Shown one piece after another: positions 26,679 through 51,959 of a stretch of 64,000 bases of DNA. Below the pieces are notes generated by a model that had not been told where the DNA came from, searched no databases, and saw nothing but the letters and a program-made list of their open reading frames with translations. The stretch's first letter is position 1, and the number at the start of each line of letters is the position of its first letter. Position numbers and translations under genes: made by a program. This DNA is from Calditrichia bacterium (lineage in GTDB: Bacteria > Calditrichota > Calditrichia > RBG-13-44-9 > J075). The stretch covers positions 1,015 through 65,014 of the forward strand of contig JANQQU010000087.1 in NCBI GenBank assembly GCA_028284905.1, written 5' to 3'.

Positions 26679-27617
26679 TCAGGGCGCCATTTCCCAAACG
26701 CGGACGTAATCGCAATACATTTCTGTTGGAAATCCCTCAGTGGTTGTTTCTTCCGGCACCGGAAAACGCTCATCGCCGATATATCTCACAAAAGGCCGGC
26801 GAAGCCCCATGGATACGGTTATGTGCATCGGTTGATGCCAGTACAAATTCTCTTTCCGGCCTCTTTCCACCCCGTCAACATACCAGATGATGGAGTCAGG
26901 TCTGCTAAGGACGCCATAGGTGTGAAAATCATCGCGGCTATCCCAGGGGGCATGCCATTTATTTCTGGTGATGTCCGGATAACCGCCCGGCCGTATCCAG
27001 GTCAATTGACCATTTTGAAGAACCCTGGCATGAAGGTTCATATCAATCACTTCCGGGCCTTCCCACTCGTTAAGGTCAAAGTCCCACTCACTTTGCTGCA
27101 TTTCTACAACATCTATTTCGCAGTATTGAACGCCCCCCTCGTCGGTAGGAGTCGGCAGCCCAACACTATACAGCCAAAAAGCAGGAGATGCGCCGGGAAA
27201 TCTGTCACAGCCCTTTATCCGTGTCTCGAAATAACCATATGTAATTGTCTCTTCGATACGAGCAATTCCGGATTTGTAATAGTATTCAGCACCATCTCTC
27301 GTATGCGTCTCCTGGATCATCTGGATGGTTAGCATGCTGTCATTTACATAGGCTAAATCCGGCTCCCAAGACCAGACACCCCAATCGCTGACATTATTGT
27401 TCCACTTTGCTGCGTCCAGGCTTGACGCATTAAATTCATCGCTCATAGCTTCGTTCAGCACCCAGCCGCCGGTGTTGTCCGGATCAGAAGCCGGATAAAA
27501 CACCTCTGTTTCAGGAGCGGGCTCAAAAGGGATTGTTAAATCCTGTTTACAATTCATAAAACAAACGCATATGGCGACTATTGCTGTCAAAGTGATTCGC
27601 TGCTTAAATGGACTCAT
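26679..27617 (-). CDS. GH16 kappa-carrageenase-like lipoprotein (GH16_17-like)
   Basis: YGYFETRIKGCDRFPGASPAFW and YCEIDVVEMQQ resemble the CgkA motifs as I recall them (FPGVSPAFW, YSEIDVVEL); lipobox-like FMNC. Confidence 0.75.
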   Translation of the reverse strand: MSPFKQRITLTAIVAICVCFMNCKQDLTIPFEPAPETEVFYPASDPDNTGGWVLNEAMSDEFNASSLDAAKWNNNVSDWGVWSWEPDLAYVNDSMLTIQMIQETHTRDGAEYYYKSGIARIEETITYGYFETRIKGCDRFPGASPAFWLYSVGLPTPTDEGGVQYCEIDVVEMQQSEWDFDLNEWEGPEVIDMNLHARVLQNGQLTWIRPGGYPDITRNKWHAPWDSRDDFHTYGVLSRPDSIIWYVDGVERGRKENLYWHQPMHITVSMGLRRPFVRYIGDERFPVPEETTTEGFPTEMYCDYVRVWEMAP

Positions 27618-30981: not shown

Positions 30982-33843
30982 TTACAAATTGACCCGTAAT
31001 CCTAACTCTATCGAGCGGGGGAATAAAAATTTGGCCCATTCGTTCTCTTTACTTACGTTAAAGTCCAGATGCTCATTCTCACCATTTTCAGGATAGATAC
31101 CAACTCTGTCGCCTTCGCGTAACGATCCAATGTAGCTAAGCCATTGTGATCCATCCATAACCCAACGGTTTAAATATTTTTGATTGAAGAGGTTGTTTAC
31201 CACCATATAGAAGGCGGGCTTAACATTATAGACATCAAATTTCTTTGACAGTCGTAAGTTCGTATTAGAGCGGGGAACCCACTGATAATCATTTTGTTCT
31301 GGCGTGGTTGGGTCATTATAACCGCCACCCTCTCTCCAGGTATACAAGAGATTTAACGCCCAACCGCCCCATATTTGACCATAATCTGTCGGTGTGTGAA
31401 GGTCTACTGATGCTCTGAAAGAAGGTCGGGAAAGCGGCCGGGCTGCAACCGCGTCAGCTCTTTCTCTATTATTAATAAGTGCATCACTGATCAGAGAGAA
31501 GCCAGTATTGACATTCGTCGTTTTTACCCAGTTATAGTTTACCCAGCCATGAAAGAATCGACCATATGTCTTTTCAGCTCTGAACTCCAATCCGAAAATA
31601 TCTTCATAGTTCTGGCTGGTATAAGTATCATAATTCACAGTACCATCGGCGCTAACGTAGTTCACTACCCCTGTTTGATCAGAGATATTTCTATAATATC
31701 CTGCAAAGTGTAACAACACTGCATCGAGGAGATTCTGATCATATCCGAGCTCATAGGCAACGGTTCTGGGAATTTCTAAATTCGGGTTACCCAATAACTC
31801 CAGTTTTGTTTGTCCGGCAGATCCAATTCGAACACCATAATATTGGTTATTGGTTGGCACAGAATAAAAATGACCGTAGTTAAAATAGATCTTCGTGTTC
31901 TTACCAATAGGATGGGATACCCCTAATCTTGGTTGCAGATTAAGCTGCGATTTGGATTTTTCACCGGGTGCTTCAGAAAGGCTGTCGATTAACTGAGCGC
32001 TATAATACGGGGAGAATGGATCCGTATGATATTTACCATCGGCATCATTGTAATCCATTCTCAGGCCGAAATTAGCAATCATCCCTTCCCATTCCAGTTT
32101 GTTCTGGATGAAAGCAGAAGCTCTTACCGGATTTCGTGTATATTTTTGGATGATCTCTACCTGATTGGTAATCTCACTATATCTCATATTTTCTTTCAAA
32201 TCTGAGTAGACTACCTCAACCCCCGCTTTCACATTGTTTGCGGTATTAATTTGACTTTGGATATCAAATTTCGCTCTCCAGGTTGTTATCGAAGACGAGT
32301 CGAGCGTCGCTGGCCAGCCCAGGGTTCTATAGACACCCAACTGATCCTGAATACGCGGTGCATCGTAATGGCCCCAGGGCGTTTCATCCAGCCATTCGCC
32401 GGAGTTTGGTAGTTGAAATAAATCGCTTGTATCTCTTGGCACAAATGTTCTTCTGTCATCCAGTGTGCTGAATCTTTCAATCTGGGCATTATAAAAGGTT
32501 TTTTGACTCAGCGTGTGGGTCATTCTTGCTGAAACCATTGCCGTGGTTTGTTTAAAGGGAGAATAACCCATCTGATATTTAAAAACATGCGCATCATTCC
32601 ACCAATCGGCCAAACCGATAAAGTTGCGACTCAACCCTCTCTGGGGCCCAAGCCAGTTCTGCACACTATACAGGCCGGTGACATTCAATTTGATACGGTT
32701 ACTGAGCCAGGAGGTCAGCTTCAATTGATAGGAGGATATCTCTCTGCTGAGTTGGCTCCGTGATGTTGTTTGATAGTAGGGCACAATCGATGCTTGCGAT
32801 TCAACTCTTCCACTAAAGAAAAAGCTGGTTCTGTCCAACATGGGAATCGGTCCACCAAAACTACCCTCTACCTGGTAATCCGCTGGCCCTTCTTTTCCGT
32901 ATTTTACCGGACGATGAAACCATTCCCATTTAGCCCGCGCATCCTCTGCAGTAATATCGTTGTCGGGAATTTCATCATTGTTAAGTCTTTCGGCAAAGGC
33001 AATCCACCCTTCAAAGGTTTCGTCACCCTCCATGTTCTCTACACCGCCCCAGCGATTCCAATCCTGGGTCCAGTATTTATCATCGCCAAAGTGCTTGTAA
33101 TGCGGGGGAGATCCTCTGAAATCAAAGGAGGCTGTATACTTGTCACCCCCTTCTTTTGTGTTTAGCTGCAACATTCCCGATCGCACATTGCCGTATTCCG
33201 CATTGAATCCACCGGTAATAATATCAACCGATTCGACCGCCGATAATGGTACATTCAAGAAAGGCCTGTTCCGGCGCTCATCATTCAATGAAGCACCATC
33301 AACCAGCATTAAAATCTGGTCTCCACCGCCACCGCGCATTACGATATCTTCAGCTGTTGGGCCAGATTCAATACCTGCTTGCACTCTCAGGAGGTTCCGG
33401 ACATCTCTGATCGGTGAATTTTCCATTGCTTCAGCAACGACTACAGAAACCTTACTTGATGCGACATCCAAAGGAACGACTTCCCGTTCAGCGACAACAA
33501 CAACTTCATTTCCAGCGACCGATTCTGTTTTCATTGGAAAATCAACGATTGTCGTTCGATCCGCATTAACACGTACCGCTGTTACATTTGTAGTCGCATA
33601 GCCAATCATTTCCGCTATAACTGCGTATGAACCCGGGGGGATATTAAGTATAAAATAATTCCCGTCTATATCCGTGGAGGCCCCTAAATGTGTTCCTTGA
33701 ATATAAACATTTACGCCAACCATCTTTTCGCCGGTTTCTTCATCTGTAACTGTACCAGCAATTTTTCCTGTAGTTGCCGCAAATGTAAGTGAAGAAAACA
33801 ATAGTAGAAAAACTACATAAATTAGAGTAATTTTCCTGAACAT
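30982..33843 (-). CDS. TonB-dependent receptor with carboxypeptidase-regulatory-like N-domain
   Basis: TGKIAGTVTDEETGE, GGFNAEYGNVRSG plug motif, C-terminal PRSIELGLRVNL; start at 33843 follows a ggagg RBS. Confidence 0.88.
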   Translation of the reverse strand: MFRKITLIYVVFLLLFSSLTFAATTGKIAGTVTDEETGEKMVGVNVYIQGTHLGASTDIDGNYFILNIPPGSYAVIAEMIGYATTNVTAVRVNADRTTIVDFPMKTESVAGNEVVVVAEREVVPLDVASSKVSVVVAEAMENSPIRDVRNLLRVQAGIESGPTAEDIVMRGGGGDQILMLVDGASLNDERRNRPFLNVPLSAVESVDIITGGFNAEYGNVRSGMLQLNTKEGGDKYTASFDFRGSPPHYKHFGDDKYWTQDWNRWGGVENMEGDETFEGWIAFAERLNNDEIPDNDITAEDARAKWEWFHRPVKYGKEGPADYQVEGSFGGPIPMLDRTSFFFSGRVESQASIVPYYQTTSRSQLSREISSYQLKLTSWLSNRIKLNVTGLYSVQNWLGPQRGLSRNFIGLADWWNDAHVFKYQMGYSPFKQTTAMVSARMTHTLSQKTFYNAQIERFSTLDDRRTFVPRDTSDLFQLPNSGEWLDETPWGHYDAPRIQDQLGVYRTLGWPATLDSSSITTWRAKFDIQSQINTANNVKAGVEVVYSDLKENMRYSEITNQVEIIQKYTRNPVRASAFIQNKLEWEGMIANFGLRMDYNDADGKYHTDPFSPYYSAQLIDSLSEAPGEKSKSQLNLQPRLGVSHPIGKNTKIYFNYGHFYSVPTNNQYYGVRIGSAGQTKLELLGNPNLEIPRTVAYELGYDQNLLDAVLLHFAGYYRNISDQTGVVNYVSADGTVNYDTYTSQNYEDIFGLEFRAEKTYGRFFHGWVNYNWVKTTNVNTGFSLISDALINNRERADAVAARPLSRPSFRASVDLHTPTDYGQIWGGWALNLLYTWREGGGYNDPTTPEQNDYQWVPRSNTNLRLSKKFDVYNVKPAFYMVVNNLFNQKYLNRWVMDGSQWLSYIGSLREGDRVGIYPENGENEHLDFNVSKENEWAKFLFPRSIELGLRVNL

Positions 33844-34007
33844 AACATCTACCTCCAAATTGTTAGTACTAACAGAAATTATAAAGCTGTCTTGGTTCTT
33901 TCTTTATCTCTTTCAAGCTTGATTCCGGCAAGACCGGTTGAACACTTGATATATTGAAATTTAATCTTAAGCCACATCATACAGATCGTAATAAATGCCA
34001 GATTCAA

Positions 34008-34023
34008 TGTATAATGTATACAT
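34008..34023. promoter_or_regulatory. FadR-type operator upstream of the TBDR operon
   Basis: tgtataatgtatacat, 1 mismatch to the consensus. Confidence 0.65.
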
Positions 34024-34105: not shown

Positions 34106-34828
34106 CTACTCATTTTTGTCATCACCTAAATGTTGTTCATCCCAGTGCATTTTGGCGGTATTCATGTGATTCGCCATTGCATTATATGCTTCTTCTTCAT
34201 TCTGCTCCGCTATGTGCTTAATTATTTGCTGATGATCGTGGATTGCAGCTTCAGGAGCGCGGGACAGTTGAAAATTTTCTATAATAAAAGTATCCAGCAT
34301 GCAGTAAATTGGTTCCATAATAATAGGAATAATCGGATTATCAGTTGAAGCAGAGAGGATGCGATGAAAGTTCATATCATGCTGAGCCATTACCAGGCGA
34401 TCTTCTCTGGTATCGATCATTTTTTGTAGACTCGCATTTAAATCTTCCAAATTTTTGTCTGTGCGGTTCTTAGCAGCCAGTCGAGTTATCTCAGGCTCAA
34501 AACTCATTCGGGCATGCATGAGATACAAAAGACTCATGTCACCAAATTTCAATTGCATTAAATTGGCAAATGGATTGACAACGCTGGAAACTTCAGTACC
34601 GGAAACAAAGATGCCATACCGGCCATTAACTTTAATCAGCCCTTCTCCTGCAAGTCGATGAATTGCTTCCCGTATAGCTGTTCTTGAGACCTCAAATGTT
34701 GAAACTAATTCGTTTTCGCTGGGTAAACGTTCGCCAGGCTTAAAGACCTTTTTAAGTATCGACTCTTTGATCTGCTCTTCTACTTTTCTGGCCAGGGGTT
34801 TATTTTGTTTGATTTTTTTTAAAGCCAT
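34106..34828 (-). CDS. GntR/FadR-family transcriptional regulator
   Basis: PGERLPSENELVSTFEVSRTAIREAI; FCD domain DMNFHRILSASTDNP; start set to MALKK at 34828. Confidence 0.92.
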   Translation of the reverse strand: MALKKIKQNKPLARKVEEQIKESILKKVFKPGERLPSENELVSTFEVSRTAIREAIHRLAGEGLIKVNGRYGIFVSGTEVSSVVNPFANLMQLKFGDMSLLYLMHARMSFEPEITRLAAKNRTDKNLEDLNASLQKMIDTREDRLVMAQHDMNFHRILSASTDNPIIPIIMEPIYCMLDTFIIENFQLSRAPEAAIHDHQQIIKHIAEQNEEEAYNAMANHMNTAKMHWDEQHLGDDKNE

Positions 34829-34873
34829 CTCTATTCCGATTGCCAGGGAGTTTATTAAACATTTCAATGTATC

Positions 34874-34889
34874 TTGTATACATTATACA
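34874..34889. promoter_or_regulatory. FadR-type operator (autoregulatory position)
   Basis: ttgtatacattataca, identical to 35309-35324. Confidence 0.7.
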
Positions 34890-35266: not shown

Positions 35267-35295
35267 TTGACATTGTGAGTCGGAGTGTCTATAAT
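35267..35295 (+). promoter_or_regulatory. Consensus sigma70 promoter for the anhydrogalactose operon
   Basis: TTGACA (35267-35272), 17-bp spacer, TATAAT (35290-35295). Confidence 0.8.
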
Positions 35296-35308: not shown

Positions 35309-35324
35309 TTGTATACATTATACA
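35309..35324. promoter_or_regulatory. FadR-type operator just downstream of the predicted transcription start
   Basis: ttgtatacattataca, 13 bp past the -10 box. Confidence 0.75.
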
Positions 35325-35469
35325 TTGCACTGTGTTTTAAAGCGACCTGAATTTATTTGCTGAATGATATTTTTTGAGCGGTATGGCTTTTTCTAGTCAG
35401 GATTATTCGGAAGATCAAAGACGCTTTGTTCAATTAGGAATTAAATATTCGCAGACAGGGGACCACAGG

Positions 35470-36600
35470 ATGAGAATTAAAGAGGTGACACATTATATTA
35501 TTTCGCATAAACTTGATGAAAGTTTTTATTTCTCCCAGTGGCACTATGATCGAAGAACAATTTGCCTGGTAAAAGTGACGACAGATGAAGGACTTTATGG
35601 ATGGGGTGAAGGATATGGCCCTGCGGGCATCATCAAAGCCGGAATTGACTTTTTTGCACCATTACTCATTGGTAAAGATCCACTTCAGCAAGAAAATATT
35701 TGGCGGCTAATGCATTTAAGATCTTTAGACTTCGCACGCCGTGGCGTTATGCTTTCGGCCCTCAGTGCATTAGATATCGCTTTGTGGGATCTGAAAGGGA
35801 AAATTTTGAAACAACCGGTATCGGTGCTTCTCGGCGGCAGAAAACGTGAGAAAGTGAAAGCCTATGCTACCGGATTATATTTCAGGGAATCAGAAAATCT
35901 CGCGCAAGAATTAGCGGAAGAGGCGTTATTCTACAAAAACGCCGGTTTTGAAGCAGTAAAGATGAAAGTAGGTTTGAACATACGTGCAGACATTGAAAAT
36001 GTGAAAGCAGTTCGGGAAATATTAGGCCCGGATATCGAACTGATGGTCGATGCCAATCATGCTTATTCCTTAAGGGAAGCGATTCAGCTTGCAAACGCTA
36101 TAGAGCCCTATAATATTTCCTGGTTTGAAGAACCGATAAGCCCGGAGGAGTATGATAATTATCGAGAACTTCGCTTGAGAACAAAGATACCAATTGCCGG
36201 CGGAGAATGCGAATATCTTCGTTTTGGCTTCCAAAATTTGTTTATTAATCGCTGTGTCGATATCGCTCAGCCGGATGTTTGTGCGACCGGCGGCATTACT
36301 GAATTCAAAAAGATTATGAGCAGTGCACAAACATTTGGCGTCGATGTTGTTCCTCATTCCTGGGGAACAGGCATCGCCTTAAGTGCGGCATTGCATCTTA
36401 TCAGTAATTGGGATACCATTCCGGGACGATTATATGAACCGGAACCGCTGATTGAATTTGATCGGACTGAAAACCCCTTGAGAGATGATCTGATTAAACC
36501 AAGATTCTCCCTGGAGAATGGCCGTTTGGATGTGCCAACGACTCCCGGTTTAGGGATCGATGTTGATATGAATCTATTAAGTAAATATGTATCGAAGTAA
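35470..36600 (+). CDS. Mandelate racemase/enolase superfamily enzyme, DauB-like 3,6-anhydrogalactonate cycloisomerase candidate
   Basis: KMKVG, DAN, WFEEP, GE, QPD and PH motifs; adjacent to the ALDH in a galactan locus; start set to MRIKE at 35470. Confidence 0.75.
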   Translation: MRIKEVTHYIISHKLDESFYFSQWHYDRRTICLVKVTTDEGLYGWGEGYGPAGIIKAGIDFFAPLLIGKDPLQQENIWRLMHLRSLDFARRGVMLSALSALDIALWDLKGKILKQPVSVLLGGRKREKVKAYATGLYFRESENLAQELAEEALFYKNAGFEAVKMKVGLNIRADIENVKAVREILGPDIELMVDANHAYSLREAIQLANAIEPYNISWFEEPISPEEYDNYRELRLRTKIPIAGGECEYLRFGFQNLFINRCVDIAQPDVCATGGITEFKKIMSSAQTFGVDVVPHSWGTGIALSAALHLISNWDTIPGRLYEPEPLIEFDRTENPLRDDLIKPRFSLENGRLDVPTTPGLGIDVDMNLLSKYVSK

Positions 36601-36618
36601 CCATAATAAGAGGGAAAT

Positions 36619-38055
36619 ATGGATTTTGGTTATCATAAACTTTATATCAACGGCGAGTTGACAGAGGCCGCTGCCGGCGAAAAATTTACTGTCGTTTGCC
36701 CGGGAACAGAAGAAAGTGTTGCGGACATCGCCTGGGCTTCCAGTGCTGATGCAGAATATGCCCTGAAAAGCGCACAGCGTGGTTTTGAGTTATGGTCAGC
36801 CCTTTCTCTCAAGGAACGCACAGAGTGGATGCATAAACTTAGAGCTGCCGTCATAGAAAAACAGCAGCTCTTGCGCGAAAGCATTATGTATGAGATGGGG
36901 AAAACCTGGGAAGGCACCGAGGAAGATTATGAAACGGTAATTAACGCGCTGCAATGGTATCCGGAAGAAATGAAAAGAACCCGGGACCAGGCGCTGCCGG
37001 ATGAAGATAACACATTTAGTCATCAGTTAGTTTCACAACCTGCCGGGGTTGTAGTGGCATATCTGGCCTGGAATTTTCCTTTGTTAAATTTGGGATTTAA
37101 ACTGGGCCCGGCGCTTGCGGCCGGTTGTAGCTTAATTATCAAACCTTCTCCAGTCTCCCCCCTTTCAGCATACCTGATTGGTGAAATATGCTATGAAATA
37201 GGATTGCCTCCCGGCGTTGTGAATATACTCTGTGGACCCGATGCGGAAATTGGTAGCAACTTATCCGGCAGCAAGATCCCGCGGGTCATTACCATGATCG
37301 GCTCTTCTGCAACCGGCCGAAGAGTCATTGCCGATAGTGCGACATCTATTAAAAAAATTAGCATGGAACTAGGTGGCAACGCCCCTGCGATGGTATTTGA
37401 GGATGCGGATTTAGACCAGGCTGTTCAGGAAATAGCTGCCCTTAAATTTGGGAATACTGGCCAGGTATGTGTTTCCCCGAACCGGATTTTTATCCATAAA
37501 ACAATTTTCAATGAATTTGAAGAAAAATTTTTGGAGAAGGCCCGGGCGGTAAGGGTTGGATTTGGCAAAGCGGATAAACCGACAATGGGACCGCTGGTTA
37601 ATAGTCAGGCCCGGGAAAGAATCCAGGAAATGGTGGCAGATGCGCTGGAAAAAGGTGCTGAAATCATCTGCGGTGGCAAAATACCGGATGGACAAACGAG
37701 AGGCTATTTCTACGAGCCAACAGTTATTAAAAATGTTACCGCAGAAATGAGAATCGTTAAGGAAGAAGTTTTTGGGCCGATTGCAACGCTTATCCCATTC
37801 GAAGGTGGGGAGGAAATTGTTGAACAGGCCAACGATACCGAACACGGGCTCGCTGCTTATCTGTACACCCGGGATGTCAATCGAATTCGTTATATCACGG
37901 AAAAATTGCAGTTTGGGGACATTATGGTAAATGGCTTTAAGTATGCCATTTATTTACCGCATGGTGGTATTAAAGAAAGCGGTGTCGGTAAAGATTGTTC
38001 TCATCTGGCCCTGGATGATTATCTGGTCGTTAAGCGGATCACTATTAAACATTAA
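36619..38055 (+). CDS. NAD-dependent aldehyde dehydrogenase, DauA-like 3,6-anhydrogalactose dehydrogenase candidate
   Basis: AWNFP, KPS, ELGGNAP, GQVC, EEVFGP motifs; genomic context. Confidence 0.78.
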   Translation: MDFGYHKLYINGELTEAAAGEKFTVVCPGTEESVADIAWASSADAEYALKSAQRGFELWSALSLKERTEWMHKLRAAVIEKQQLLRESIMYEMGKTWEGTEEDYETVINALQWYPEEMKRTRDQALPDEDNTFSHQLVSQPAGVVVAYLAWNFPLLNLGFKLGPALAAGCSLIIKPSPVSPLSAYLIGEICYEIGLPPGVVNILCGPDAEIGSNLSGSKIPRVITMIGSSATGRRVIADSATSIKKISMELGGNAPAMVFEDADLDQAVQEIAALKFGNTGQVCVSPNRIFIHKTIFNEFEEKFLEKARAVRVGFGKADKPTMGPLVNSQARERIQEMVADALEKGAEIICGGKIPDGQTRGYFYEPTVIKNVTAEMRIVKEEVFGPIATLIPFEGGEEIVEQANDTEHGLAAYLYTRDVNRIRYITEKLQFGDIMVNGFKYAIYLPHGGIKESGVGKDCSHLALDDYLVVKRITIKH

Positions 38056-38122
38056 TATTAGGCGTTCATTTGCTTTGACAAAGAAGTAAATAAGGATACT
38101 CCGAATGCCAAACACTTTTATT

Positions 38123-38218
38123 AGCCACTGATTATCACGGATTTACACGGATTATAAAAATGGTCAATTATTAATGAATACTTTTAAAATCTGTGTTCAT
38201 CTGTGCAAATCCGTGGCT
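38123..38218. repeat. Imperfect inverted repeat, cacgga-type REP/MITE-like element
   Basis: agccactgattatcacggatttacacggatt versus aatctgtgttcatctgtgcaaatccgtggct; same family as 15558. Confidence 0.7.
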
Positions 38219-38241
38219 TCAATAACGGGCAAAATATTGTA

Positions 38242-39018
38242 ATGGTACAAGAGAATAAACTAAGAAAACGTTTAAGAACGGGGGAAACGGTTTTTGGGCC
38301 GTTTCTAAAGCTTGCTGATCCCGCGATTATAGAGATAGCCGGATCAGCCGGTTTTGACTTTGCAATTATCGATACCGAACACGGGCCGCTCTCCATCGAA
38401 AGCGCACAGAACCTGGTCCGGGCTGCAGAGAATAAGGGAATAACACCGATTATTCGTGTGCTCAATAATGACCATGGTTCAATCCTGCGCGCATTGGATA
38501 TCGGTGCTCATGGCGTCCAAGTGCCGCAGGTGTCCACTGAAAAGCAAGCAAGAAATGTCGTCGCAGCGGTCAAGTTTTTTCCGGAAGGCGAGCGTGGGGT
38601 TTGCCGGTTTGTCCGAGCGGCCGAATATTCTTCCATGGATAAATTTGAGTATTTCAAAGCTGCTAACCGGGAAACAGTGGCAATTATTCACGTCGAAGGC
38701 ATTGAAGGGATAAACAACCTCCCGGATATTTTAACCGTTGAAGGTCTCGATGTCGTATTTCTCGGTCCTTATGACCTCTCCCAAGCCTGTGGTGTAACCG
38801 GACAGGTCGATCACCCCAAAGTCGTGGAGAAAATGCAATCGGCGGTTAACCTCGCCAGGGAAAAAAATATTGCTGTCGGCACTTTTGTAGAAAGCAGTGA
38901 AACCGCCGAAATGTGGATAAATCTGGGAGTGCAATATATCTCCTACTCGGTCGACGTGGGCATTTTCTTCTCAGCGTGTGCAAATATTCTTGATGGCTTG
39001 AAGCGCGTCGCCAGGTAG
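38242..39018 (+). CDS. HpcH/HpaI class II pyruvate aldolase
   Basis: DTEHG, IIRV, HVEG, FLGPYDLS motifs; start set to MVQEN at 38242. Confidence 0.88.
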   Translation: MVQENKLRKRLRTGETVFGPFLKLADPAIIEIAGSAGFDFAIIDTEHGPLSIESAQNLVRAAENKGITPIIRVLNNDHGSILRALDIGAHGVQVPQVSTEKQARNVVAAVKFFPEGERGVCRFVRAAEYSSMDKFEYFKAANRETVAIIHVEGIEGINNLPDILTVEGLDVVFLGPYDLSQACGVTGQVDHPKVVEKMQSAVNLAREKNIAVGTFVESSETAEMWINLGVQYISYSVDVGIFFSACANILDGLKRVAR

Positions 39019-39139
39019 AAGCAAGCTCTTTGAAACCAATAATCTGAGCGGCTATAACCTCGCATCTACGCTAATTTAATCTCAATCAAGGATGACTAGC
39101 AATTATTTCAAACATTTATTTTTGAAGGGTTTAAGAGCT

Positions 39140-40519
39140 ATGAAAACAATGCATTGCGTAAGATTGCTCCTTTTTCTGTTTTTTTCACTACAAACAACAA
39201 ATGCACAAAACCAGCCAAATGTGATCCTCTTTTTCGCGGATGATGCCGGATATGCCGATTTTGGCTTTCATGGCAGCAAGGAGATGAAAACACCCCAGTT
39301 AGATCAGCTTGCCACAGCAGGCGTCCGCTTTACGCAGGGGTATGTTTCCGATCCCACTTGTGGCCCCTCCAGAGCTGGATTGATCACAGGAAGATATCAG
39401 CAACGTTTCGGTTATGAAGAAAATAATGTGCCCGGTTTTATGAGTGAAAATTCGGCAGCAAAAGGCGATGATATGGGGCTCCCGCTAACCGAAGTGACCA
39501 TGGGCGACTACATGCAATCTTTGGGATATCAGACCGCTTTCTTCGGGAAATGGCATTTGGGAGGAGCGGATCGGTTTCATCCCACCAAAAGGGGATTTGA
39601 TGAATTCTACGGGTTTCGCGGTGGCGCGAGAAGTTATTTTGCATATCCAAATGAGCCAGCGAGACATCTCGATAAAATGGAGCGCAACTTCGGGAATTTT
39701 GCCGAGCATGACGGTTATTTAACGGATGTTCTGGCAGATGAAACCATATCCTTTATCGAGCGGAATAAAGAAAAGCCATTCTTTGCACTCGTTTCCTTCA
39801 ACGCGGTGCATACCCCCATGGATGCCCGGGAAGAAGATTTAAAAGAATTTCCAGAACTGACCGGGGACCGACAAATAGTGGCGGCGATGACCCTGGCAAT
39901 GGATCGCGCCTGTGGTAAAGTAATGGCAAAGCTGGCTGAACTGGGATTAGATAACAATACGATTGTCGTTTTTACCAATGATAATGGGGGGCCAAGTGAC
40001 AGAAATGCCTCAGTAAACCTTCCTTTAAGCGGTACAAAATCGAATCATCTGGAAGGCGGTATCCGGGTTCCTTTTATCATGCGCTGGCCGGGGACAATTC
40101 CCGAAAATACGGTTTATGATTACCCCATTAGCACGTTGGATTTGCTACCGACATTTTTTGCCGCCGGAGGTGGAGAAGTTGATTCCCTGCGCAATGTGGA
40201 CGGGGTCGATCTGATGCCTTACATCCTTGGAAAGAATGAAGCGCGCCCCCATCAGGTAATGTATTGGAAGAAGGAAAACCGTGGTGTTATTCGCGATGGG
40301 GACTGGAAGCTGCTTCGTTTTCCTGACCGGCCTGCCGAGTTGTATAATCTCGCCGAAGACATTAAAGAGCATAACAATCTGGCAGCGGAATACCCGGAAA
40401 AAGTGAAAAAGATGTTCAAACAGCTCTTTGAATGGGAATTAACGCTGGAACGCCCCCGCTGGCTGTTGAAAAGGGAATATGAGAAATTAGATATTGACCG
40501 AATGGACCAGTACAGATAA
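39140..40519 (+). CDS. S1 sulfatase (S1_19-like), exported
   Basis: [37 protein letters not shown]; signal peptide. Confidence 0.9.
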
Positions 40520-40562
40520 AAACTTGATCTATACAATAGAGAGCGAAGGGGTAATGGTTACC

Positions 40563-42014
40563 ATGAAAAAACAAATTCAATTTCTGCTAATTGGCGCATG
40601 CATCCTGTTTAGCACTCATTGCCTGGCGCAGAGCGAAAAACAATCGGGTAAACACCCATATTCCGACCCTTCCAATGCTGGTGGCTGGGTGCTAAATGAA
40701 GACCTCAGTGATGAATTCGAAGGCACGGCGCTGGATACTAATAAATGGTTTATTGAGGGATTAAATGGGGACTATTATATCTGGAAAGGCCGGGCGCCTG
40801 CGCAGTTTGCCCCGCATAATGCCATTGTGGAAGACGGAAAACTGAAACTGAGAACCCAATGGGAACCGGACTATCCTTTCGACCAGGAAGGCTACAAAGA
40901 AAGTGGCGCTGAGCCTTATGGTGTCTTCGAAGGGGAACCCTTGCCAGTCACTACAGCGGCTGTAATCACTAAAAAGCGATTTCTCTATGGTTATATGGAA
41001 GTTAAATCCAAATCCGGTAATGCAGCAATTACCGCGGCGTTTTGGACGATTGGCTACGAACAGGAACTGGATATTTTTGAACAGATGGGAAATCCCAAAA
41101 TCAAATTAGAGAATAACATTCAGGCAAATTCCACTCGCACCGGCGTGCACGACTGGAGCCCTCCGGCTGTCCGCCCGACAAAAGCATTTGGTTACGACGA
41201 TATGAATTTACCTTATCGCACCGCTGATGACTTTCACGTCTACGGCGCGGAATGGGGTGTGGATTACCTGAAGATTTATCGCGATGGCCAATTAACCTAT
41301 CACATCACGCAGGACGAATTGGGATTGGATTGGGTGCTTAATAATCCGATGGAAATATGGTTGGATTCGGAAGTTTTCAAATGGCTCGGCGTTCCCCACA
41401 AGGAAGAATTACCGGTAGATTTTGAAATTGAATACTTACGTGTCTGGCAAAAGCCCGACCCTAATCTTCTTGATCGCGCCTTTTATGGTTTTGAAGGGCC
41501 GATCTTATACGAGGAAAATCCCCGGCCATTAACATTATTACCGGAAAGTTCCGTGCCGGATAATTATCAAAAATTTTGGTTAATCGACAGCCTCTCCGCG
41601 AAATACTTCATCATCAATGAAGGAGATTATGCAACCGGCGTTAACAGTTTAGAATTTTCCGGCTTTGGGAAAAACGAAAAGCTGGAAACCGATAAAGTCG
41701 TGGCTTTATCACCCGAAGGTGCGGTAAATATTCCCGCGGGAGAGTACACCCTTTCTCTAAAAGTATTTAAAAAACAAGGTAGAGATGTTAAGAAAGTCTA
41801 TTTGTCTTTCGAAAATCCCAGACTGGAAATACCGATTGACCTCAGCGGATTGGAAAGAGACAAATGGATAACGATTGAGCATAAATTTACCAAACCGGCA
41901 GCCTCGAGTGCCAGTGACCAATTCAAGATCGAAGTCCGCAAAGAAGATGTTCCCCAAATAAAAGCAGCTAAATTTTTCATTGATGATATCGCAATTCATG
42001 CAAATGACAACTAG
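40563..42014 (+). CDS. GH16 galactan hydrolase with C-terminal CBM-like beta-sandwich
   Basis: SDEFEG, GRAPAQFAP, catalytic ELDIFE, FHVYGAEW, plus about 180 extra C-terminal residues. Confidence 0.8.
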   Translation: MKKQIQFLLIGACILFSTHCLAQSEKQSGKHPYSDPSNAGGWVLNEDLSDEFEGTALDTNKWFIEGLNGDYYIWKGRAPAQFAPHNAIVEDGKLKLRTQWEPDYPFDQEGYKESGAEPYGVFEGEPLPVTTAAVITKKRFLYGYMEVKSKSGNAAITAAFWTIGYEQELDIFEQMGNPKIKLENNIQANSTRTGVHDWSPPAVRPTKAFGYDDMNLPYRTADDFHVYGAEWGVDYLKIYRDGQLTYHITQDELGLDWVLNNPMEIWLDSEVFKWLGVPHKEELPVDFEIEYLRVWQKPDPNLLDRAFYGFEGPILYEENPRPLTLLPESSVPDNYQKFWLIDSLSAKYFIINEGDYATGVNSLEFSGFGKNEKLETDKVVALSPEGAVNIPAGEYTLSLKVFKKQGRDVKKVYLSFENPRLEIPIDLSGLERDKWITIEHKFTKPAASSASDQFKIEVRKEDVPQIKAAKFFIDDIAIHANDN

Positions 42015-42088
42015 GACTCACAAGGCTTTAGCATTTCGAAGCGCTTTTTAGCCGAGATATCATTGCCCTATTTAAGGACACCATTATT

Positions 42089-43702
42089 ATGAACAGATAC
42101 GACAAAAATGCTGCCATATATGCAACAATCGTGGCGATGGGCGGCTTTCTCTTCGGCCTCGATGCCGCATTGATTGCCGGGACAGTCGACTTCATTACAA
42201 AGGAGTTTTCTTTAACTGCATTGCAAATCGGCGATGTTGTCAGTGCACCGGCATTAGGGGTGTTGATTGCCCTACCATTTGCCGGTTATATCACCAATCG
42301 GTTTGGACGAAAACGGACGATTCAACTGATAGCTGTTCTATATTTAATTTCCGCGGTTACTTCTGCCCTGGCCCCCAGTTACGGAACGCTGGTTGCGGCA
42401 CGTTTTCTTGGCGGACTCGCTTTCACGTCTATTGCACTGGCCTCGATGTATATCGGGGAAATTGCCCCGGTGAAATGGCGCGGTAAGCTGGTTTCGATGA
42501 CCCAGATCAATATTGTCATCGGCCTTTCTGGCGCCTACTTCATCAATTATCTCATTCACCATTGGTCTGGCACAGGTGCCGGTTGGGTGCAGTCGCTGGG
42601 AATCGATCAATACACCTGGCGTTGGATGCTCGGTTCGGAAATTCTCCCGGCGATTATTTGGCTTGGCCTGCTGTCGATTATCCCGGAAAGCCCTTCCTGG
42701 CTGACCAACTGCGGTCGCATCGAAGAAGCGAAGACCAACTTAAAGAAAGTCATGCCGGAAAATGAGATTGATAAACACATTGCGGAAATGCAGGAAAGCA
42801 TTCGGCTCAGCACCGAGGATCGTTCTGTTTTGGCCCAAATGAAGGAAATTTTCAGCAAGCCGATGCGACTGACAATGATCATCGCCTTAACGATCGCTAT
42901 TGCCCAACAGGCCACCGGTATCAACGCTATTTTATTCTATGCCCAGACGGTTTTTAAGCAATTGGGAATTGGAACGGATGCCGCCTTCGCGCAAGCTATC
43001 TGGATCGGTATAACGAGTATCGTGTTTACAGTTTTAGGCTTATTACTGGTCGACAGGCTGGGACGCAGACCGCTAATCATCTGGGGAATGGTGTGGATTA
43101 TCGCCAGCCTTGGCTTGTGTTCTTACGTCTTTAACGAAGCACGCTATGTCCTTCCTGAATCGGCGATAGTTCAGATGACCGACATTCCGGATGCAGATCG
43201 CTTGCAGTCACTGGTTGATGTTGAGTATGAAAGCGATATTGCTTTTAAGAATGCAGTTCGGGGAGCATTGGGCGAGGCGGAAGCGCAAGAACATCAAAGT
43301 CTGTTGCTGGAAAAGTCGATCCAAATGAATGCGACGCTTGTACTGCTCGGTATTCTTAGCTTTATCGGAGCTTTCCACTTTTCAGTGGGACCGGTAATGT
43401 GGGTGTTGTTTTCGGAAATCTTTCCAATATCGGTGCGTGCGATCGCCATCCCCTTCTTTACCATTATTACCAGTCTTACAAATTATATCGTCCAAAAATT
43501 CTTCCCCTGGCAGTTAGAGAATATGGGGATGAGTACAATTTTCCTCTTTTATGCAGCAACGGTTGCCGTTGGCCTGGTCATCTTGTTTTTCACCCTTAAG
43601 GAAACGAAAAACATGAGTATCGAGGAGATCCAATTGGCGCTGACCGGCAAAGCACAAAAAGGAGAAACAACAGCGGAAGTAAGTCCAAACACAGGGATGT
43701 AA
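42089..43702 (+). CDS. MFS sugar porter
   Basis: GGFLFGLD, RFGRK, MYIGEIAP, PESP, QQATGINAILFYA, DRLGRRP, KETK motifs. Confidence 0.92.
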   Translation: MNRYDKNAAIYATIVAMGGFLFGLDAALIAGTVDFITKEFSLTALQIGDVVSAPALGVLIALPFAGYITNRFGRKRTIQLIAVLYLISAVTSALAPSYGTLVAARFLGGLAFTSIALASMYIGEIAPVKWRGKLVSMTQINIVIGLSGAYFINYLIHHWSGTGAGWVQSLGIDQYTWRWMLGSEILPAIIWLGLLSIIPESPSWLTNCGRIEEAKTNLKKVMPENEIDKHIAEMQESIRLSTEDRSVLAQMKEIFSKPMRLTMIIALTIAIAQQATGINAILFYAQTVFKQLGIGTDAAFAQAIWIGITSIVFTVLGLLLVDRLGRRPLIIWGMVWIIASLGLCSYVFNEARYVLPESAIVQMTDIPDADRLQSLVDVEYESDIAFKNAVRGALGEAEAQEHQSLLLEKSIQMNATLVLLGILSFIGAFHFSVGPVMWVLFSEIFPISVRAIAIPFFTIITSLTNYIVQKFFPWQLENMGMSTIFLFYAATVAVGLVILFFTLKETKNMSIEEIQLALTGKAQKGETTAEVSPNTGM

Positions 43703-43747
43703 AAATTGCTGACATAGCTAGCGCTTAAATAAAAGGTAGTTGAAGAA

Positions 43748-45736
43748 ATGACAGACGCATATCTGCACAAAAAAGCAATTATTAACAATTCGGAAAGTCC
43801 GCATGTAAAATTGAAAAGCATCAACATTGGTGATTGCCGCTGGACGGACGGTTTTTGGGCGAAGAAGTTTAGAAGCTGTGAAGAGGCAATGGTGCCATAT
43901 ATGGGCGAGGTATTATGCGGAGACGTTGGCCATGCTTTGAACAACTTCAAAATTGCTGCTGGCGAAAAAGAAGGCGAACATCAGGGGATGTTTTGGCATG
44001 ATGGCGATTTTTACAAGTTTATGGAAGCGAAAACCTATGTTTACGCCCAAACTGAAAATAAACAATTGCTGGAAGAGCTGGATGAGTACATCAGAATCAT
44101 TGCCAAAGCGCAGGAGGCAGACGGCTATCTGCAAACCCAGATAAAACTTCGGCAAGGCGTCGATCGATATGAGAATCGCAAGTACCACGAAATGTATAAC
44201 ACCGGTCACCTCCTCATCAGCGCCTGCATCCATCACCGCGTTACCGGGCAACGAAACTTTCTCGATATCGCGATAAAGCAAGCGGATTTGCTATACACGA
44301 TTTTTATGCCGGAAACCAAGCATTATGGCCGTTTCGGTTTTAACCAGACGCAGATCATGGGATTGGTTGAATTATATCGCACTACCAGAGATAAAAAGTA
44401 TCTCGATTTGGCAGAACGATTCATCAACAACCGCGGCAAGTATACGGTTGAGCATCATTCCACCACCGAAGGCTATCCCATTGGAGATATGGTTCAGGAA
44501 CGCACCCCGCTCCGCGAATCGAATGAAGCGGTTGGGCATGCAGTGCTTGCCTTGTACTACTATGCCGGCGCTGCCGATGTTTATGCCGAAACCGGCGAAC
44601 AAGCACTGATTGATGCCCTTGACAAACTTTGGGAAAATGTAACCAATAAAAAGATGTTTGTTACCGGCGCGGTTGGTCAGGCGCACTACGGCGCTTCCAC
44701 CAATCGGGATATGATTGAAGAGGGATTTATCGATGAATACATGATGCCCAATATGACCTCCTATAACGAGACTTGTGCGAATCTTTGCAACGCAATGTTT
44801 AGTTACCGGATGCTCGGTTTACATGGGCAGGCAAAGTATGCAGACATCATCGAGTTGGTGTTATTCAACAGCGGCCTTTCCGGTATCAGCATTGAAGGGA
44901 AAGATTATTTTTATGCCAATCCCCTGCGCATGATCCACAATACCCGGGACTATCACGCCCATGAAAATGTTACCGAAACACCGGACCGCGAGTCCTACCT
45001 TCACTGTTTCTGCTGCCCGCCGAATTTGGTGCGTACCATTGCGAAGGTATCCAGCTGGGCGTACAGCTTGTCGGAGAATGGGGTTGCGGTGAATCTGTTT
45101 GGCAGCAACCAGTTAAACACCCGCCTGTTAGACGGCTCAGCGCTAAAACTCACTCAGCAGACAGAATATCCCTGGGATGGCCGGGTAAAAATCACCATTC
45201 AAGAATGCAAGGAAGCACCATTTGAGGTTTTACTACGAATCCCCGGTTGGGCGGAAGGCGCGAAAGTTCTAGTGAATGGCCATGATGCCGGCATCGACGT
45301 TGCTTCCGGCAAATTTGCCAGAATCGAACGTCAATGGAGAAAAGATGATGTTATTACCCTGGATATGCCAATGGAGATCCATCTGGTAGAAGGGCACCCC
45401 CGCATTGAAGAAGTTCGTAACCAGGTAGCAATTAAACGCGGACCAGTGGTGTATTGTATTGAATCGCCGGACTTACCAGCGGATACGAAAATTCTGGATG
45501 TTTACATTTCCGGGAATACTGAATTGAAGGCAGAACATCGCCCGGAATTTTTGGGGGGGATTACCGTTCTCAAAGGAGATGTATTCCTGCGTCTCGATGA
45601 AGGTGAGGGGATTTATCGAACAGTGAAAAAGCCGAGCTGGAAGTCTCATGAGACTATCTTTGTCCCCTACTACGCATGGAGTAACAGAGGTACGGCAGAA
45701 ATGACCGTATTCATGCCTGTTATCTGGAAAGAGTAA
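43748..45736 (+). CDS. GH127 glycosidase, alpha-3,6-anhydro-D-galactosidase candidate
   Basis: HEMYNTGHL, GHAV, NETCAN, CFCCPPN, FVPYYAWSNRG motifs; GH127 enzymes fill this role in the Zobellia carrageenan pathway. Confidence 0.82.
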   Translation: MTDAYLHKKAIINNSESPHVKLKSINIGDCRWTDGFWAKKFRSCEEAMVPYMGEVLCGDVGHALNNFKIAAGEKEGEHQGMFWHDGDFYKFMEAKTYVYAQTENKQLLEELDEYIRIIAKAQEADGYLQTQIKLRQGVDRYENRKYHEMYNTGHLLISACIHHRVTGQRNFLDIAIKQADLLYTIFMPETKHYGRFGFNQTQIMGLVELYRTTRDKKYLDLAERFINNRGKYTVEHHSTTEGYPIGDMVQERTPLRESNEAVGHAVLALYYYAGAADVYAETGEQALIDALDKLWENVTNKKMFVTGAVGQAHYGASTNRDMIEEGFIDEYMMPNMTSYNETCANLCNAMFSYRMLGLHGQAKYADIIELVLFNSGLSGISIEGKDYFYANPLRMIHNTRDYHAHENVTETPDRESYLHCFCCPPNLVRTIAKVSSWAYSLSENGVAVNLFGSNQLNTRLLDGSALKLTQQTEYPWDGRVKITIQECKEAPFEVLLRIPGWAEGAKVLVNGHDAGIDVASGKFARIERQWRKDDVITLDMPMEIHLVEGHPRIEEVRNQVAIKRGPVVYCIESPDLPADTKILDVYISGNTELKAEHRPEFLGGITVLKGDVFLRLDEGEGIYRTVKKPSWKSHETIFVPYYAWSNRGTAEMTVFMPVIWKE

Positions 45737-45763
45737 TAACAAACTTAATTTGCGCGAGAAGTC

Positions 45764-47431
45764 ATGAATAATTTACTGAGCAGTTGCAGAACTTTAAGCA
45801 TTTTGTTCTTATTGATATTTGTCTGCGGATGCAAATCCGCCGAAGAACCACAACAAAAACCCAATATCCTCTTCATTGCGATTGATGACCTCCGTCCTGA
45901 ACTGGGTTGCTATGGCTCCGAGGTCGCAGTAACGCCCAATCTTGACAAATTCGCCAGTGAGGGTTTGCTTTTTAACAGAGCTTACGCTCAACAAGCCATT
46001 TGCAGCCCCTCCCGGGCCAGTCTTATGACCGGCGCCCGGCCTGAGACCATCAATATCATCGAAAATTATACCTATTTCCGGGATCTTCATCCGGATATCA
46101 TCACACTCCCGCAGCACTTCCGGGCAAACGGCTACGAAACCGTTCACAGCGGAAAAATTTATCATAAACCAGCCTTCGCAGACCTCGAAAAATCCTGGAG
46201 CCGGACGCCAGCAACACTTGATATTCCCGAGCCCAGATATCCCGGAGCTTATGCTTTGAAAGAGAATCAGGAAATTTTCAAAGAAAATCAGGCGACTATC
46301 CGCAAGAAGTATGGAGAAGGCGCTACTTCTCATCATGCGTTGGGGAGAGGGCCGGCTTATGAAAAAGCAGATGTGCCCGATCATGCCTACATCGATGGTT
46401 TTCATACCGAAGAAGCTATTGCAACGATGAAAGAGATGGCTAACCAAGGAGACAAACCATTTTTTCTCGGGCTGGGATTCAGATTGCCTCATCTCGATTG
46501 GAATGCGCCGAAAAAATATTGGGATTTATATGATCCGGAAAAAATACCAATGGCGGCGCAAACCGAGCGGCCGAAAAATGGGGCTGCAATGGGGCTGCAT
46601 GCCTCATTCGAGCTACGGGTAAGGCATGGCATCCCAAAAAGTGGGCCTATCGAGGGAGAATTGGCAAGAACGCTAAAACACGGCTATCTCGCCAGCGTCA
46701 GTTATGTAGATGCCCTCTTTGGAAAAATGCTAACAGCTTTGGAAGCAGCTGGCGTACGGGATAATACCATTATCATCGTCTGGAGCGATCACGGCTGGCA
46801 TTTGGGAGATATGGGTATTTGGGGGAAAGCAACCAATTATGAAATTGCTACTCGCGTCCCCATGATGATTTGGACACCGGACATGCCCGGAGAAAACCGC
46901 GGGAAAAAAACCGATGCTTTAGTTGAATTAATCGACATGTATCCAACCTTATGCGAACTGGCCGGTATTGAATTGCCCGCACATCTGGAAGGCCAAAGTT
47001 TTGCTCCGCTTTTGGAAGTGCCGGATAGGGAGTGGAAAAAAGCAGCGTTCAGCTTATATCCAAATCCTGCTCTTCGGGAATGGGCGGCGAATCCCCTGAC
47101 TGCGAGCATGCGGGAAACTTATTTTGGTCCGTTAATCGAAGCAGTGGAATCACGTATTATCACGCAACAAAAGGAAAAATGGGATCGCGACTTATTCGAA
47201 AACGATCTGATGGGCTACACAATGCGAACCGATAAATACCGCCTGGTAGTTTGGAAAGATCACACAAATCCGGATAGTCAGCCCATTTTTCTGGAGCTTT
47301 ACGACCATCAGACTGATCCTGCAGAAACTATAAATATTGCTCAGGATGAGCCGAAATTGATCAAGAAACTATTGGCGCAATTCAATGCAGGATGGAAAGG
47401 GAGCCTCGCTGCAATGGAGCGAGTAAATTAG
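45764..47431 (+). CDS. S1 sulfatase (S1_7/iduronate-sulfatase-like) lipoprotein
   Basis: IAIDDLRP, ICSPSRASLMTG, GKIYH, RLPHL, SDHGWHLG; lipobox-like VCGC. Confidence 0.88.
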   Translation: MNNLLSSCRTLSILFLLIFVCGCKSAEEPQQKPNILFIAIDDLRPELGCYGSEVAVTPNLDKFASEGLLFNRAYAQQAICSPSRASLMTGARPETINIIENYTYFRDLHPDIITLPQHFRANGYETVHSGKIYHKPAFADLEKSWSRTPATLDIPEPRYPGAYALKENQEIFKENQATIRKKYGEGATSHHALGRGPAYEKADVPDHAYIDGFHTEEAIATMKEMANQGDKPFFLGLGFRLPHLDWNAPKKYWDLYDPEKIPMAAQTERPKNGAAMGLHASFELRVRHGIPKSGPIEGELARTLKHGYLASVSYVDALFGKMLTALEAAGVRDNTIIIVWSDHGWHLGDMGIWGKATNYEIATRVPMMIWTPDMPGENRGKKTDALVELIDMYPTLCELAGIELPAHLEGQSFAPLLEVPDREWKKAAFSLYPNPALREWAANPLTASMRETYFGPLIEAVESRIITQQKEKWDRDLFENDLMGYTMRTDKYRLVVWKDHTNPDSQPIFLELYDHQTDPAETINIAQDEPKLIKKLLAQFNAGWKGSLAAMERVN

Positions 47432-47435
47432 AAAA

Positions 47436-49337: not shown

Positions 49338-49371
49338 TCACCGCTTTTATTGAATTTAAATGCATTATCAA

Positions 49372-50568: not shown

Positions 50569-50613
50569 TGTATCAAACGGCTACAAAGGTAAAAAATAAC
50601 AGAGCATGATATT

Positions 50614-51912: not shown

Positions 51913-51959
51913 AAAAAACAAAGGGTTACAAGAAAATTTCTTGTAACCCTTTGTTTTTT
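51913..51959. terminator. Bidirectional-type hairpin between galK and the tRNA fragment
   Basis: aaaaaacaaagggttacaagaaa / tttcttgtaaccctttgtttttt perfect inverted repeat with A/T tails. Confidence 0.8.

Follow-up and report, generated by a model that had tools for sequence, protein, structure and literature searches.

How does a carrageenan-degrading bacterium complete the breakdown of 3,6-anhydro-D-galactose (D-AHG) if neither the kinase nor the last aldolase of the known route lies beside its first two enzymes? This question is raised by a stretch of 64,000 nucleotides from a Calditrichia bacterium (GenBank assembly GCA_028284905.1, contig JANQQU010000087.1, positions 1,015 to 65,014 of the forward strand), hereafter the window, in which an enolase-superfamily gene (dauB), an aldehyde dehydrogenase gene (dauA), and an HpcH/HpaI aldolase gene (hpcH) follow one another. 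To our knowledge, the only worked-out pathway for the carrageenan monomer ends with a kinase and a 2-keto-3-deoxy-6-phospho-D-galactonate (KDPGal) aldolase, and its four-gene set serves as a marker in genome surveys. This is the DauA-DauB-DauC-DauD route for D-AHG of Zobellia galactanivorans (Ficko-Blean et al. 2017, PMC5698469), in which the DauC kinase precedes the DauD aldolase, as a first reading of the window from its letters alone (the sequence-only reading) had correctly stated.

That reading had also placed the three genes in a row, and all three were confirmed as co-oriented open reading frames (ORFs) with Pfam matches:

35470..36600, plus strand: dauB ortholog, enolase superfamily (ORF from 35374)
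36619..38055, plus strand: dauA ortholog, aldehyde dehydrogenase (Pfam Aldedh, 478 bits)
38242..39018, plus strand: HpcH/HpaI class II aldolase, proposed 2-keto-3-deoxy-D-galactonate (KDGal) aldolase (longest ORF from 38203; Pfam PF03328, 121 bits)

We read the block as the cytoplasmic D-AHG module of a carrageenan operon, ending in the direct cleavage of KDGal by the HpcH aldolase, and assign this reading a probability of about 0.6. DauA would oxidize D-AHG to 3,6-anhydro-D-galactonate, and DauB would open and isomerize this product to KDGal. The metal-dependent aldolase would then cleave the non-phosphorylated KDGal to pyruvate and D-glyceraldehyde, replacing both the DauC kinase and the DauD KDPGal aldolase. 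The D-glyceraldehyde may be oxidized by an aldehyde dehydrogenase to D-glycerate, which, judging from gene presence, a DUF4147/MOFRL glycerate 2-kinase may convert to 2-phosphoglycerate for glycolysis.

Identity of the three enzymes

The homology of the DauB ORF (35374-36600) to its relatives begins at residue 33, corresponding to nucleotide 35470, which is the start that the sequence-only reading had chosen. The Pfam domains MR_MLE_N (60 bits) and MR_MLE_C (219 bits) give the protein the two-domain architecture of the enolase superfamily. Against Zobellia DauB (PDB 5olc), 375 residues were aligned without a gap at about 541-544 bits (E 8e-162); the next structures were the galactaro-lactone cycloisomerase AtGCI (4ggb, 328 bits) and the 3,6-anhydro-L-galactonate cycloisomerase (5xd7, 164 bits). 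The 5olc enzyme has three metal ligands (Asp, Glu, Glu), a Lys as general base, and a His as general acid (PMC5698469), and the KMKVG, vDaNH, WFEEP, GGECEY, and VPHsWG motifs (KxK, D, E, E, and H..W) all match 5olc in the alignment.

The dauA gene starts 18 nt after the end of dauB. Its product has 6pnu as the best PDB match (519 bits), followed by succinate-semialdehyde dehydrogenases (355 bits), and shares 44-61% identity with the aldehyde dehydrogenase that follows DauB in 22 loci of named genomes. The 6PNU and 6POP entries are among the depositions of the paper in which Pseudoalteromonas DauA was assayed and crystallized (PMC6923384). From these comparisons, DauA and DauB are firmly predicted to be orthologs of the assayed enzymes and to give KDGal, and their orthology to the characterized 5olc and 6pnu proteins bears out the earlier assignment of the block to the anhydrogalactose pathway.

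The third protein, 258 aa long, probably starts with the ATG at 38242, judged from 31 relatives, and matches the HpcH_HpaI profile PF03328 at 121 bits (cut-off 25) over profile positions 4-219 of 221. It scores under all NCBIfam equivalog cut-offs (HpaI 176/369, GarL 161/393, and RhmA 139/441 bits) and shares about 31-33% identity with YfaU and GarL of Escherichia coli. The ORF is intact and holds a complete class II catalytic residue set: H60, R85, E165, and D191 align to YfaU H49, R74, E153, and D179 (the catalytic His and Arg and the metal-ligand Glu and Asp) and are invariant across 32 relatives. The roles of Arg70 and His45 have been described for EcHpaI (PMC8560999). The closest database relatives share 60-68% identity and come from many other phyla.

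The cleavage of KDGal is inferred because KDGal is the sole 2-keto-3-deoxy acid that the neighboring enzymes would supply, because the family adjoins enolase-superfamily dehydratases, and because the Acinetobacter baumannii enzyme AbHpaI offers a precedent. The second point was seen in four loci (L070, L117, L134, and L141; L numbers designate loci), and E. coli rhmD lies near yfaU similarly. As for the third, AbHpaI (PDB 7et8 series) prefers non-phosphorylated (4R)-KDGal in the cleavage direction, has been crystallized with KDGal, and makes (4R)-KDGal stereospecifically from pyruvate and D-glyceraldehyde (PMC8560999). It belongs to the same family as the window aldolase (E 6e-34); however, it serves aromatic (4-hydroxyphenylacetate) degradation, KDGal being a surrogate substrate, and it has no link to carrageenan.

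Recurrence of the DauA-HpcH arrangement

A DauB scan over one-genome-per-species contigs resulted in about 22 orthologs with 51-64% identity, from Wenyingzhuangia, Ochrovirga, Cellulophaga, Flammeovirga, Persicobacter, Saprospiraceae, and others. Where the locus extends far enough for a decision, the genes after DauB-DauA encode DgoK and a DgoA-like aldolase in 10 loci and PfkB and an Eda-like aldolase in 6 (L015, L017, L019, L022, L028, and L029), and HpcH was found in none. The published Paraglaciecola and Colwellia systems likewise end with a kinase and a KDPGal aldolase.

We then have the phylum itself. DauB occurs in two of the 86 Calditrichota species genomes, namely this one and one of a genus that is apparently Caldithrix (G047). 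The arrangement of this relative, complete in L015, is GntR-DauB-DauA-Eda-PfkB, with a GntR regulator 66% identical to that of the window. The contigs L015 and L016, which carry GntR-DauB-DauA(-Eda-PfkB), are binned as 'Methanosarcinales archaeon' and 'Caldisericaceae bacterium', and the layout of L016 matches the DauB contig of G047; these NCBI labels suggest mis-binning or mis-naming. In the 85 other Calditrichota genomes, no aldolase ortholog was found; vertical inheritance cannot serve as evidence.

Metagenome contigs were scanned with an alignment of the database relatives of the aldolase, and 80 loci were examined. A DauA ortholog (52-59% identity) lies directly upstream of the aldolase in nine of them. 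Six contain DauB-DauA-HpcH (L100, the Tara contig L101, L107, L114, L118, and L119), L104 is only partial, and two contain DauB-GH127-sulfatase-sulfatase-DauA-HpcH (L076 and L098). The L107 aldolase gene lies at 9995-10759. Of the six DauB-DauA-HpcH contigs, five leave 1 nt between dauA and hpcH and the sixth, L119, leaves 16 nt; all six carry a RhaT-like drug/metabolite transporter (DMT) gene directly after hpcH, whereas the window locus has a major facilitator superfamily (MFS) transporter. The Zobellia cluster also contains a DMT sugar symporter (PMC5698469).

L101 and L107 look like Bacteroidota, with a hybrid two-component sensor, an AraC regulator, a secretion-tail protein, GH2, and sulfatases. 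The L076 aldolase shares 81% identity with a protein named from a Rikenellaceae metagenome-assembled genome (MAG). Two side observations were made in this set. L101 has a small Dabb (stress-responsive A/B barrel) gene before dauB. In addition, L108, a 1.4-kb contig from a human gut metagenome, encodes an aldolase nearly identical to that of L098, a hint that the HpcH ending may also be used by carrageenan loci of the gut. In the wider aldolase family, IclR regulators, short-chain dehydrogenases/reductases (SDRs), and 2-hydroxyacid dehydrogenases were also found nearby.

These data bear on whether hpcH is simply a foreign aldolase gene that was inserted into the operon recently, does not function there, and contributes nothing to carrageenan use. 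The lack of an ortholog elsewhere in the phylum, the 60-68% identity of the closest relatives, all from other phyla, and the 186-nt gap before hpcH would suit such an event. On the other hand, the ORF is intact with all catalytic residues kept, the DauA-HpcH association recurs in nine other contigs across three DauB lineages, and it is the whole locus that is rare in Calditrichota rather than hpcH alone (DauB in 2/86 genomes). We regard an insertion of this kind as very improbable indeed.

Phylogenetic analysis

A quick IQ-TREE analysis of 81 aldolases, in which E. coli YfaU and GarL were placed, grouped all ten DauA-linked aldolases, including that of the window, in one clade of 15 (Shimodaira-Hasegawa-like approximate likelihood ratio test, SH-aLRT, 96). 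An independent FastTree run recovered the same 15-row clade with a support of 0.98. The other five rows are three contigs of about 1 kb without visible context and two loci (L103 and L106) near uxaA/uxaB/kdgK/eda genes. YfaU, GarL, and the second HpcH paralog of the genome fall far outside, YfaU and GarL being split off by a branch with a support of 99. Some residues computed as specific to the clade are also present in database relatives outside it. When the DauA-link labels were shuffled on the aldolase tree, 0/500 shuffles needed as few changes. Together with the nine metagenome contigs, this indicates that the arrangement is more than chance.

The second paralog (C13:282903-283697, or L154:6903-7697; C numbers designate contigs of this genome) is distant and lies beside SIS, NagB-like, ROK, and two 2-hydroxyacid dehydrogenase genes. 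This is a cluster of amino-sugar-acid type, unrelated to the carrageenan locus.

The FastTree phylogeny of DauB gave a different picture for the partner genes. Loci of the HpcH type fall into three distinct groups with kinase-type loci between them, the deep nodes being weakly supported: one group branches as the sister of PfkB-type loci (support 0.96), another is isolated, and the window lies next to a DgoK-type flavobacterial group. A monophyletic aldolase joined to several DauB/DauA lineages is what would be expected of an exchangeable module kept for its pathway function. Combined with at least three DauB/DauA lineages, the aldolase clade thus behaves as a putative third exchangeable finishing module beside DgoK plus DgoA-like and PfkB plus Eda-like. 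We lean, by a small degree, toward the broader view that the DauA-linked clade is a dedicated, kinase-independent KDGal aldolase, mobile and swapped as a finishing module into marine Bacteroidota-like, Bacteroidales-like, and Calditrichota carrageenan loci.

Transcription unit and candidate operator

Eleven plus-strand genes (35374-51882) lie opposite a divergent GntR/FCD regulator and minus-strand genes for uptake and depolymerization. An operator-like 15-mer, TGTATACATTATACA, has four copies at up to one mismatch in the 8.55-Mb genome, every one of them in the carrageenan locus. The control elements are as follows:

27665-27680, no strand assigned: operator copy, about 50 bp upstream of the kappa-carrageenase gene
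34008-34023, no strand assigned: operator copy, upstream of the SusC-like receptor gene
34874..34889, plus strand: operator-like site TTGTATACATTATACA, exact copy, just upstream of the start codon of the GntR regulator
35267..35295, plus strand: sigma-70-like promoter TTGACA-17-TATAAT before dauB, 12/12 consensus positions (consensus match only)
35309..35324, plus strand: operator-like site, exact copy, directly downstream of the promoter and before dauB
51913..51959, no strand assigned: hairpin with a 20-bp stem and T tracts, likely end of the unit (scored as a minus-strand terminator; the palindrome could end the plus-strand unit too)

No comparable terminator-like hairpin was found between dauB and galK, the dauA-hpcH gap included. 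From this layout, dauB-galK appears to be one operon, apparently under the divergent GntR repressor with a candidate operator confined to the locus. The putative operator copies would mark a small regulon consisting of the kappa-carrageenase, the TonB receptor unit, the regulator itself, and the dauB-galK operon.

The operator was searched genome-wide at up to three mismatches, and the two-mismatch copies were near control level. A second GntR/FCD paralog (12581-13345), oriented divergently to an SDR gene (11302-12162), is closely preceded by an operator-like site with three mismatches, TCGTATACAATATACC (12542-12557); these may form a separate, though related, regulatory pair. Bacteroidota promoters follow a consensus different from that of E. 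coli sigma-70. The promoter before dauB is a perfect E. coli-type consensus in a member of the Fibrobacterota-Chlorobiota-Bacteroidota (FCB) group, and Calditrichota promoters may be of the classical type.

Search for the canonical kinase and aldolase

The genome is 100% complete by marker genes, and the window lies on its contig C79. A PF05035 profile search found no DgoK-type kinase in it, and a tblastn search with a Pfam-verified Wenyingzhuangia DgoK seed gave no match either. The PfkB profile PF00294 matched six genes genome-wide (on C80, C42, C1, C14, C13, and C12), only that on C1 being similar to a 2-keto-3-deoxy-D-gluconate (KDG) kinase. The profile of aldolases of the 2-keto-3-deoxy-6-phosphogluconate (KDPG) type, PF01081, matched a single gene, also on C1. 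On C79, no match to PfkB, DgoK, or KDPG aldolase was found, and the operon encodes a single kinase, the GHMP galactokinase (50614-51882).

The absence of a PfkB/DgoK kinase and of a KDPG-type aldolase, noted by the sequence-only reading for the block, therefore holds for the block, the window, and the operator-defined regulon. Regarding a dauC/dgoK gene elsewhere in the genome, DgoK is indeed lacking, but a generic KdgK/Eda pair exists on C1. A co-regulated kinase, which would have counted against the earlier proposal, did not emerge from the operator search: no operator copy occurs at the C1 pair, and copies at up to one mismatch are absent from C1 and C45.

The C1 pair deserves attention, since it supplies the strongest alternative. 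The gene of the KdgK-like kinase, at L008:8856-9926 on the minus strand, and the Eda gene are neighbors. PL6-type lyases and others, with secretion tails, are encoded upstream of them, and the locus is a uronate or alginate-type polysaccharide-lyase locus. If the phosphorylative route were kept, these two enzymes would process KDGal, and HpcH would be accessory or unrelated, acting for example on another 2-keto-3-deoxy acid. PfkB plus Eda-like pairs, and not DgoK/DgoA, do end the six D-AHG clusters named above, and the C1 kinase shares 46-48% identity with the kinases of L015 (a contig-truncated match over a third of the query), L022, and L029, and 61% with that of L076. Additionally, a model of bifunctional KDG/KDGal kinases matches the C1 kinase below threshold, and HpcH, KdgK, and Eda stand together in L076. 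However, the C1 pair sits in a lyase locus without the operator of the carrageenan locus, L098 is near-identical to L076 and has no KdgK/Eda at that position, and KDGal is the only 2-keto-3-deoxy acid expected from the enzymes next to HpcH. Moreover, the tight and repeated DauA-HpcH coupling and the dedicated aldolase clade would be left without a reason. On balance, we consider a retained phosphorylative route unlikely.

A C4-epimerizing shunt is a further alternative, in which the aldolase would cleave KDGal and re-condense pyruvate and D-glyceraldehyde to KDG for KdgK/Eda, so that the glyceraldehyde is captured as glyceraldehyde-3-phosphate. KdgK and Eda are the commonest neighbors of the aldolase family, in L076 among others. 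Relaxed stereocontrol at C4, which also counts for the shunt, is known from some class II pyruvate aldolases, E. coli HpaI among them. In the AbHpaI paper, by contrast, the stereospecificity of that enzyme is set against such relaxed control, and only the 4R product was obtained (PMC8560999). We found no example of an aldolase acting as a physiological epimerase, and most DauA-HpcH contigs have no KdgK/Eda within the visible 7-20 kb. The shunt thus seems quite improbable. Both alternatives that involve KdgK/Eda, by phosphorylation or by interconversion of KDGal and KDG, are kept alive by the HpcH-KdgK-Eda row of L076 and by the neighbors of the wider family.

Several observations weigh against direct KDGal cleavage by HpcH. 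In L076, HpcH is followed directly by KdgK and Eda, which is not a simple replacement, and the genes most often found near members of the wider family are those for KdgK (19 loci) and Eda (14 loci). The C1 kinase and the C1 Eda share 46-61% and 31-50% identity, respectively, with the PfkB/Eda pairs that finish D-AHG clusters elsewhere, and by this resemblance the two enzymes might accept KDGal or KDPGal. The dauA-hpcH gap of the window, 186 nt, is looser than in the marine contigs. Condensation by AbHpaI is about 40-fold faster than cleavage (PMC8560999). Lastly, the operon contains no dedicated glyceraldehyde-handling gene. A 443-aa DUF4147+MOFRL protein is encoded on C45, unlinked to the locus; its best NCBIfam matches are glycerate 2-kinases, under their cut-offs, and one operator match about 540 bp upstream of its gene has three mismatches, which is at noise level.

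Against these points stand the gene context, the aldolase clade, the AbHpaI precedent, and the lack of DgoK, which together support the non-phosphorylative branch first proposed in the sequence-only reading and argue for HpcH as the probable last enzyme of the block.

Comparison with known systems

The locus resembles that of Zobellia in its orthologous DauA and DauB and in having GH127, sulfatases, a kappa-carrageenase, a sugar transporter, and a locus regulator. It differs in what follows DauB: the genome lacks a DgoK-type DauC, the locus lacks a DauD of KDPGal type, and a class II aldolase of the HpcH/HpaI family takes their place. The predicted products would be pyruvate and free D-glyceraldehyde, not glyceraldehyde-3-phosphate.

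The E. coli RhmD-RhmA (YfaW-YfaU) and GarD/GarL pairs follow the same logic: an upstream enzyme (RhmD belonging to the enolase superfamily) makes a 2-keto-3-deoxy sugar acid, which an HpcH-family aldolase cleaves without phosphorylation. RhmA and GarL share the catalytic His, Arg, Glu, and Asp with the window aldolase. The likeness is limited by the low identity and sub-cut-off scores given above, by an upstream cycloisomerase that acts on an anhydro-sugar acid in the window locus, and by a different aldehyde product.

A third likeness is to the non-phosphorylative Entner-Doudoroff pathway of Picrophilus and Thermoplasma, in which a keto-deoxy acid gives pyruvate and glyceraldehyde, and the latter is turned into glycerate, which a MOFRL-type glycerate 2-kinase converts to 2-phosphoglycerate. 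The aldolase of these thermoacidophilic archaea is of class I (Schiff-base, DHDPS/NAL-type), whereas the window aldolase is a class II metal enzyme and its proposed substrate has the galacto configuration.

Ficko-Blean et al. (2017) suggested that some species without dauC might use a non-phosphorylative (archaeal-type) variant, with dauD kept in the universal core (PMC5698469). The swap of both dauC and dauD for a class II aldolase was found neither in that paper nor in the other papers searched, and a literature search returned nothing relevant that ties HpcH/HpaI aldolases to carrageenan or anhydro-galactose. The HpcH-ended arrangement points to an apparently undescribed, phosphate-free ending of a known pathway.

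Other features of the locus

The RpoB protein of the genome (L151:4932-8711) shares 84% identity with 'Calditrichia bacterium' MAGs and 67% with Caldithrix abyssi, which places the genome in Calditrichota. Downstream of hpcH lie two sulfatases, a divergent GH16-like protein, an MFS sugar transporter, GH127, an FG-GAP/ASPIC protein, galT, and galK. On the minus strand upstream are the SusC-like receptor, a 708-aa protein, a PorV-like barrel, and the kappa-carrageenase; farther away follow additional GH16 proteins and sulfatases bearing type IX secretion tails. The main remaining features are:

26679..27617, minus strand: GH16 kappa-carrageenase (NCBIfam K_carrageenase, 392 bits, cut-off 350), which sets the substrate of the locus
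30982..33858, minus strand: TonB-dependent (SusC-like) receptor (Pfam CarbopepD_reg_2 and Plug)
34106..34867, minus strand: GntR/FCD-family regulator, divergent from dauB (Pfam GntR and FCD; 66% identity to the GntR before DauB-DauA in L015 and L016)
39092..40519, plus strand: sulfatase in the dauB operon (Pfam Sulfatase)
40494..42014, plus strand: divergent GH16-like protein (Pfam Glyco_hydro_16, 38 bits; weak kappa-carrageenase match)
42089..43702, plus strand: MFS sugar transporter (Pfam Sugar_tr, 303 bits)
43748..45736, plus strand: GH127, candidate alpha-1,3-(3,6-anhydro)-D-galactosidase (Pfam GH127 catalytic, middle, and C-terminal domains)
45764..47431, plus strand: sulfatase (Pfam Sulfatase)
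49531..51882, plus strand: galT and galK, last genes of the unit (Pfam GalP_UDP_transf; GalKase_gal_bdg and GHMP_kinases_N)

The block is a carrageenan utilization locus, in which galT and galK deal with the D-galactose half by the Leloir route, and DauA and DauB with the anhydro-galactose half. The GH127 protein shares 66-73% identity with the DauB-adjacent GH127 of Flammeovirga, Persicobacter, and a Flavobacteriaceae MAG (the 66% value is a match of 18% coverage at a contig end). The GH127 proteins of Zobellia are DagA enzymes (PMC5698469), and the window protein is a candidate that would free the anhydro-sugar.

In the uptake part, the receptor is followed by the 708-aa protein (28824-30950), for which the Pfam search gave no match, and by the PorV-like barrel (27791-28765), with no recognizable SusD. 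The lack of a recognizable SusD is expected outside Bacteroidota. A complete carrageenan locus is apparently unusual in Calditrichota, given the two DauB-bearing species genomes out of 86.

Biological significance

Carrageenan is a major red-algal carbon pool. If the kinase-free ending is true, half of the carbon of the anhydro-sugar would leave as free D-glyceraldehyde in these organisms, and marker-based genome surveys would miss some carrageenan degraders. It would also supply a concrete enzyme for the non-phosphorylative variant that was only suggested in 2017 (PMC5698469), as well as a natural, probably stereoselective KDGal aldolase for turning seaweed sugars into pyruvate. For the phylum, the locus itself has a further meaning. 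Calditrichota are mainly known as protein degraders in sediments, and the locus extends carrageenan use to them.

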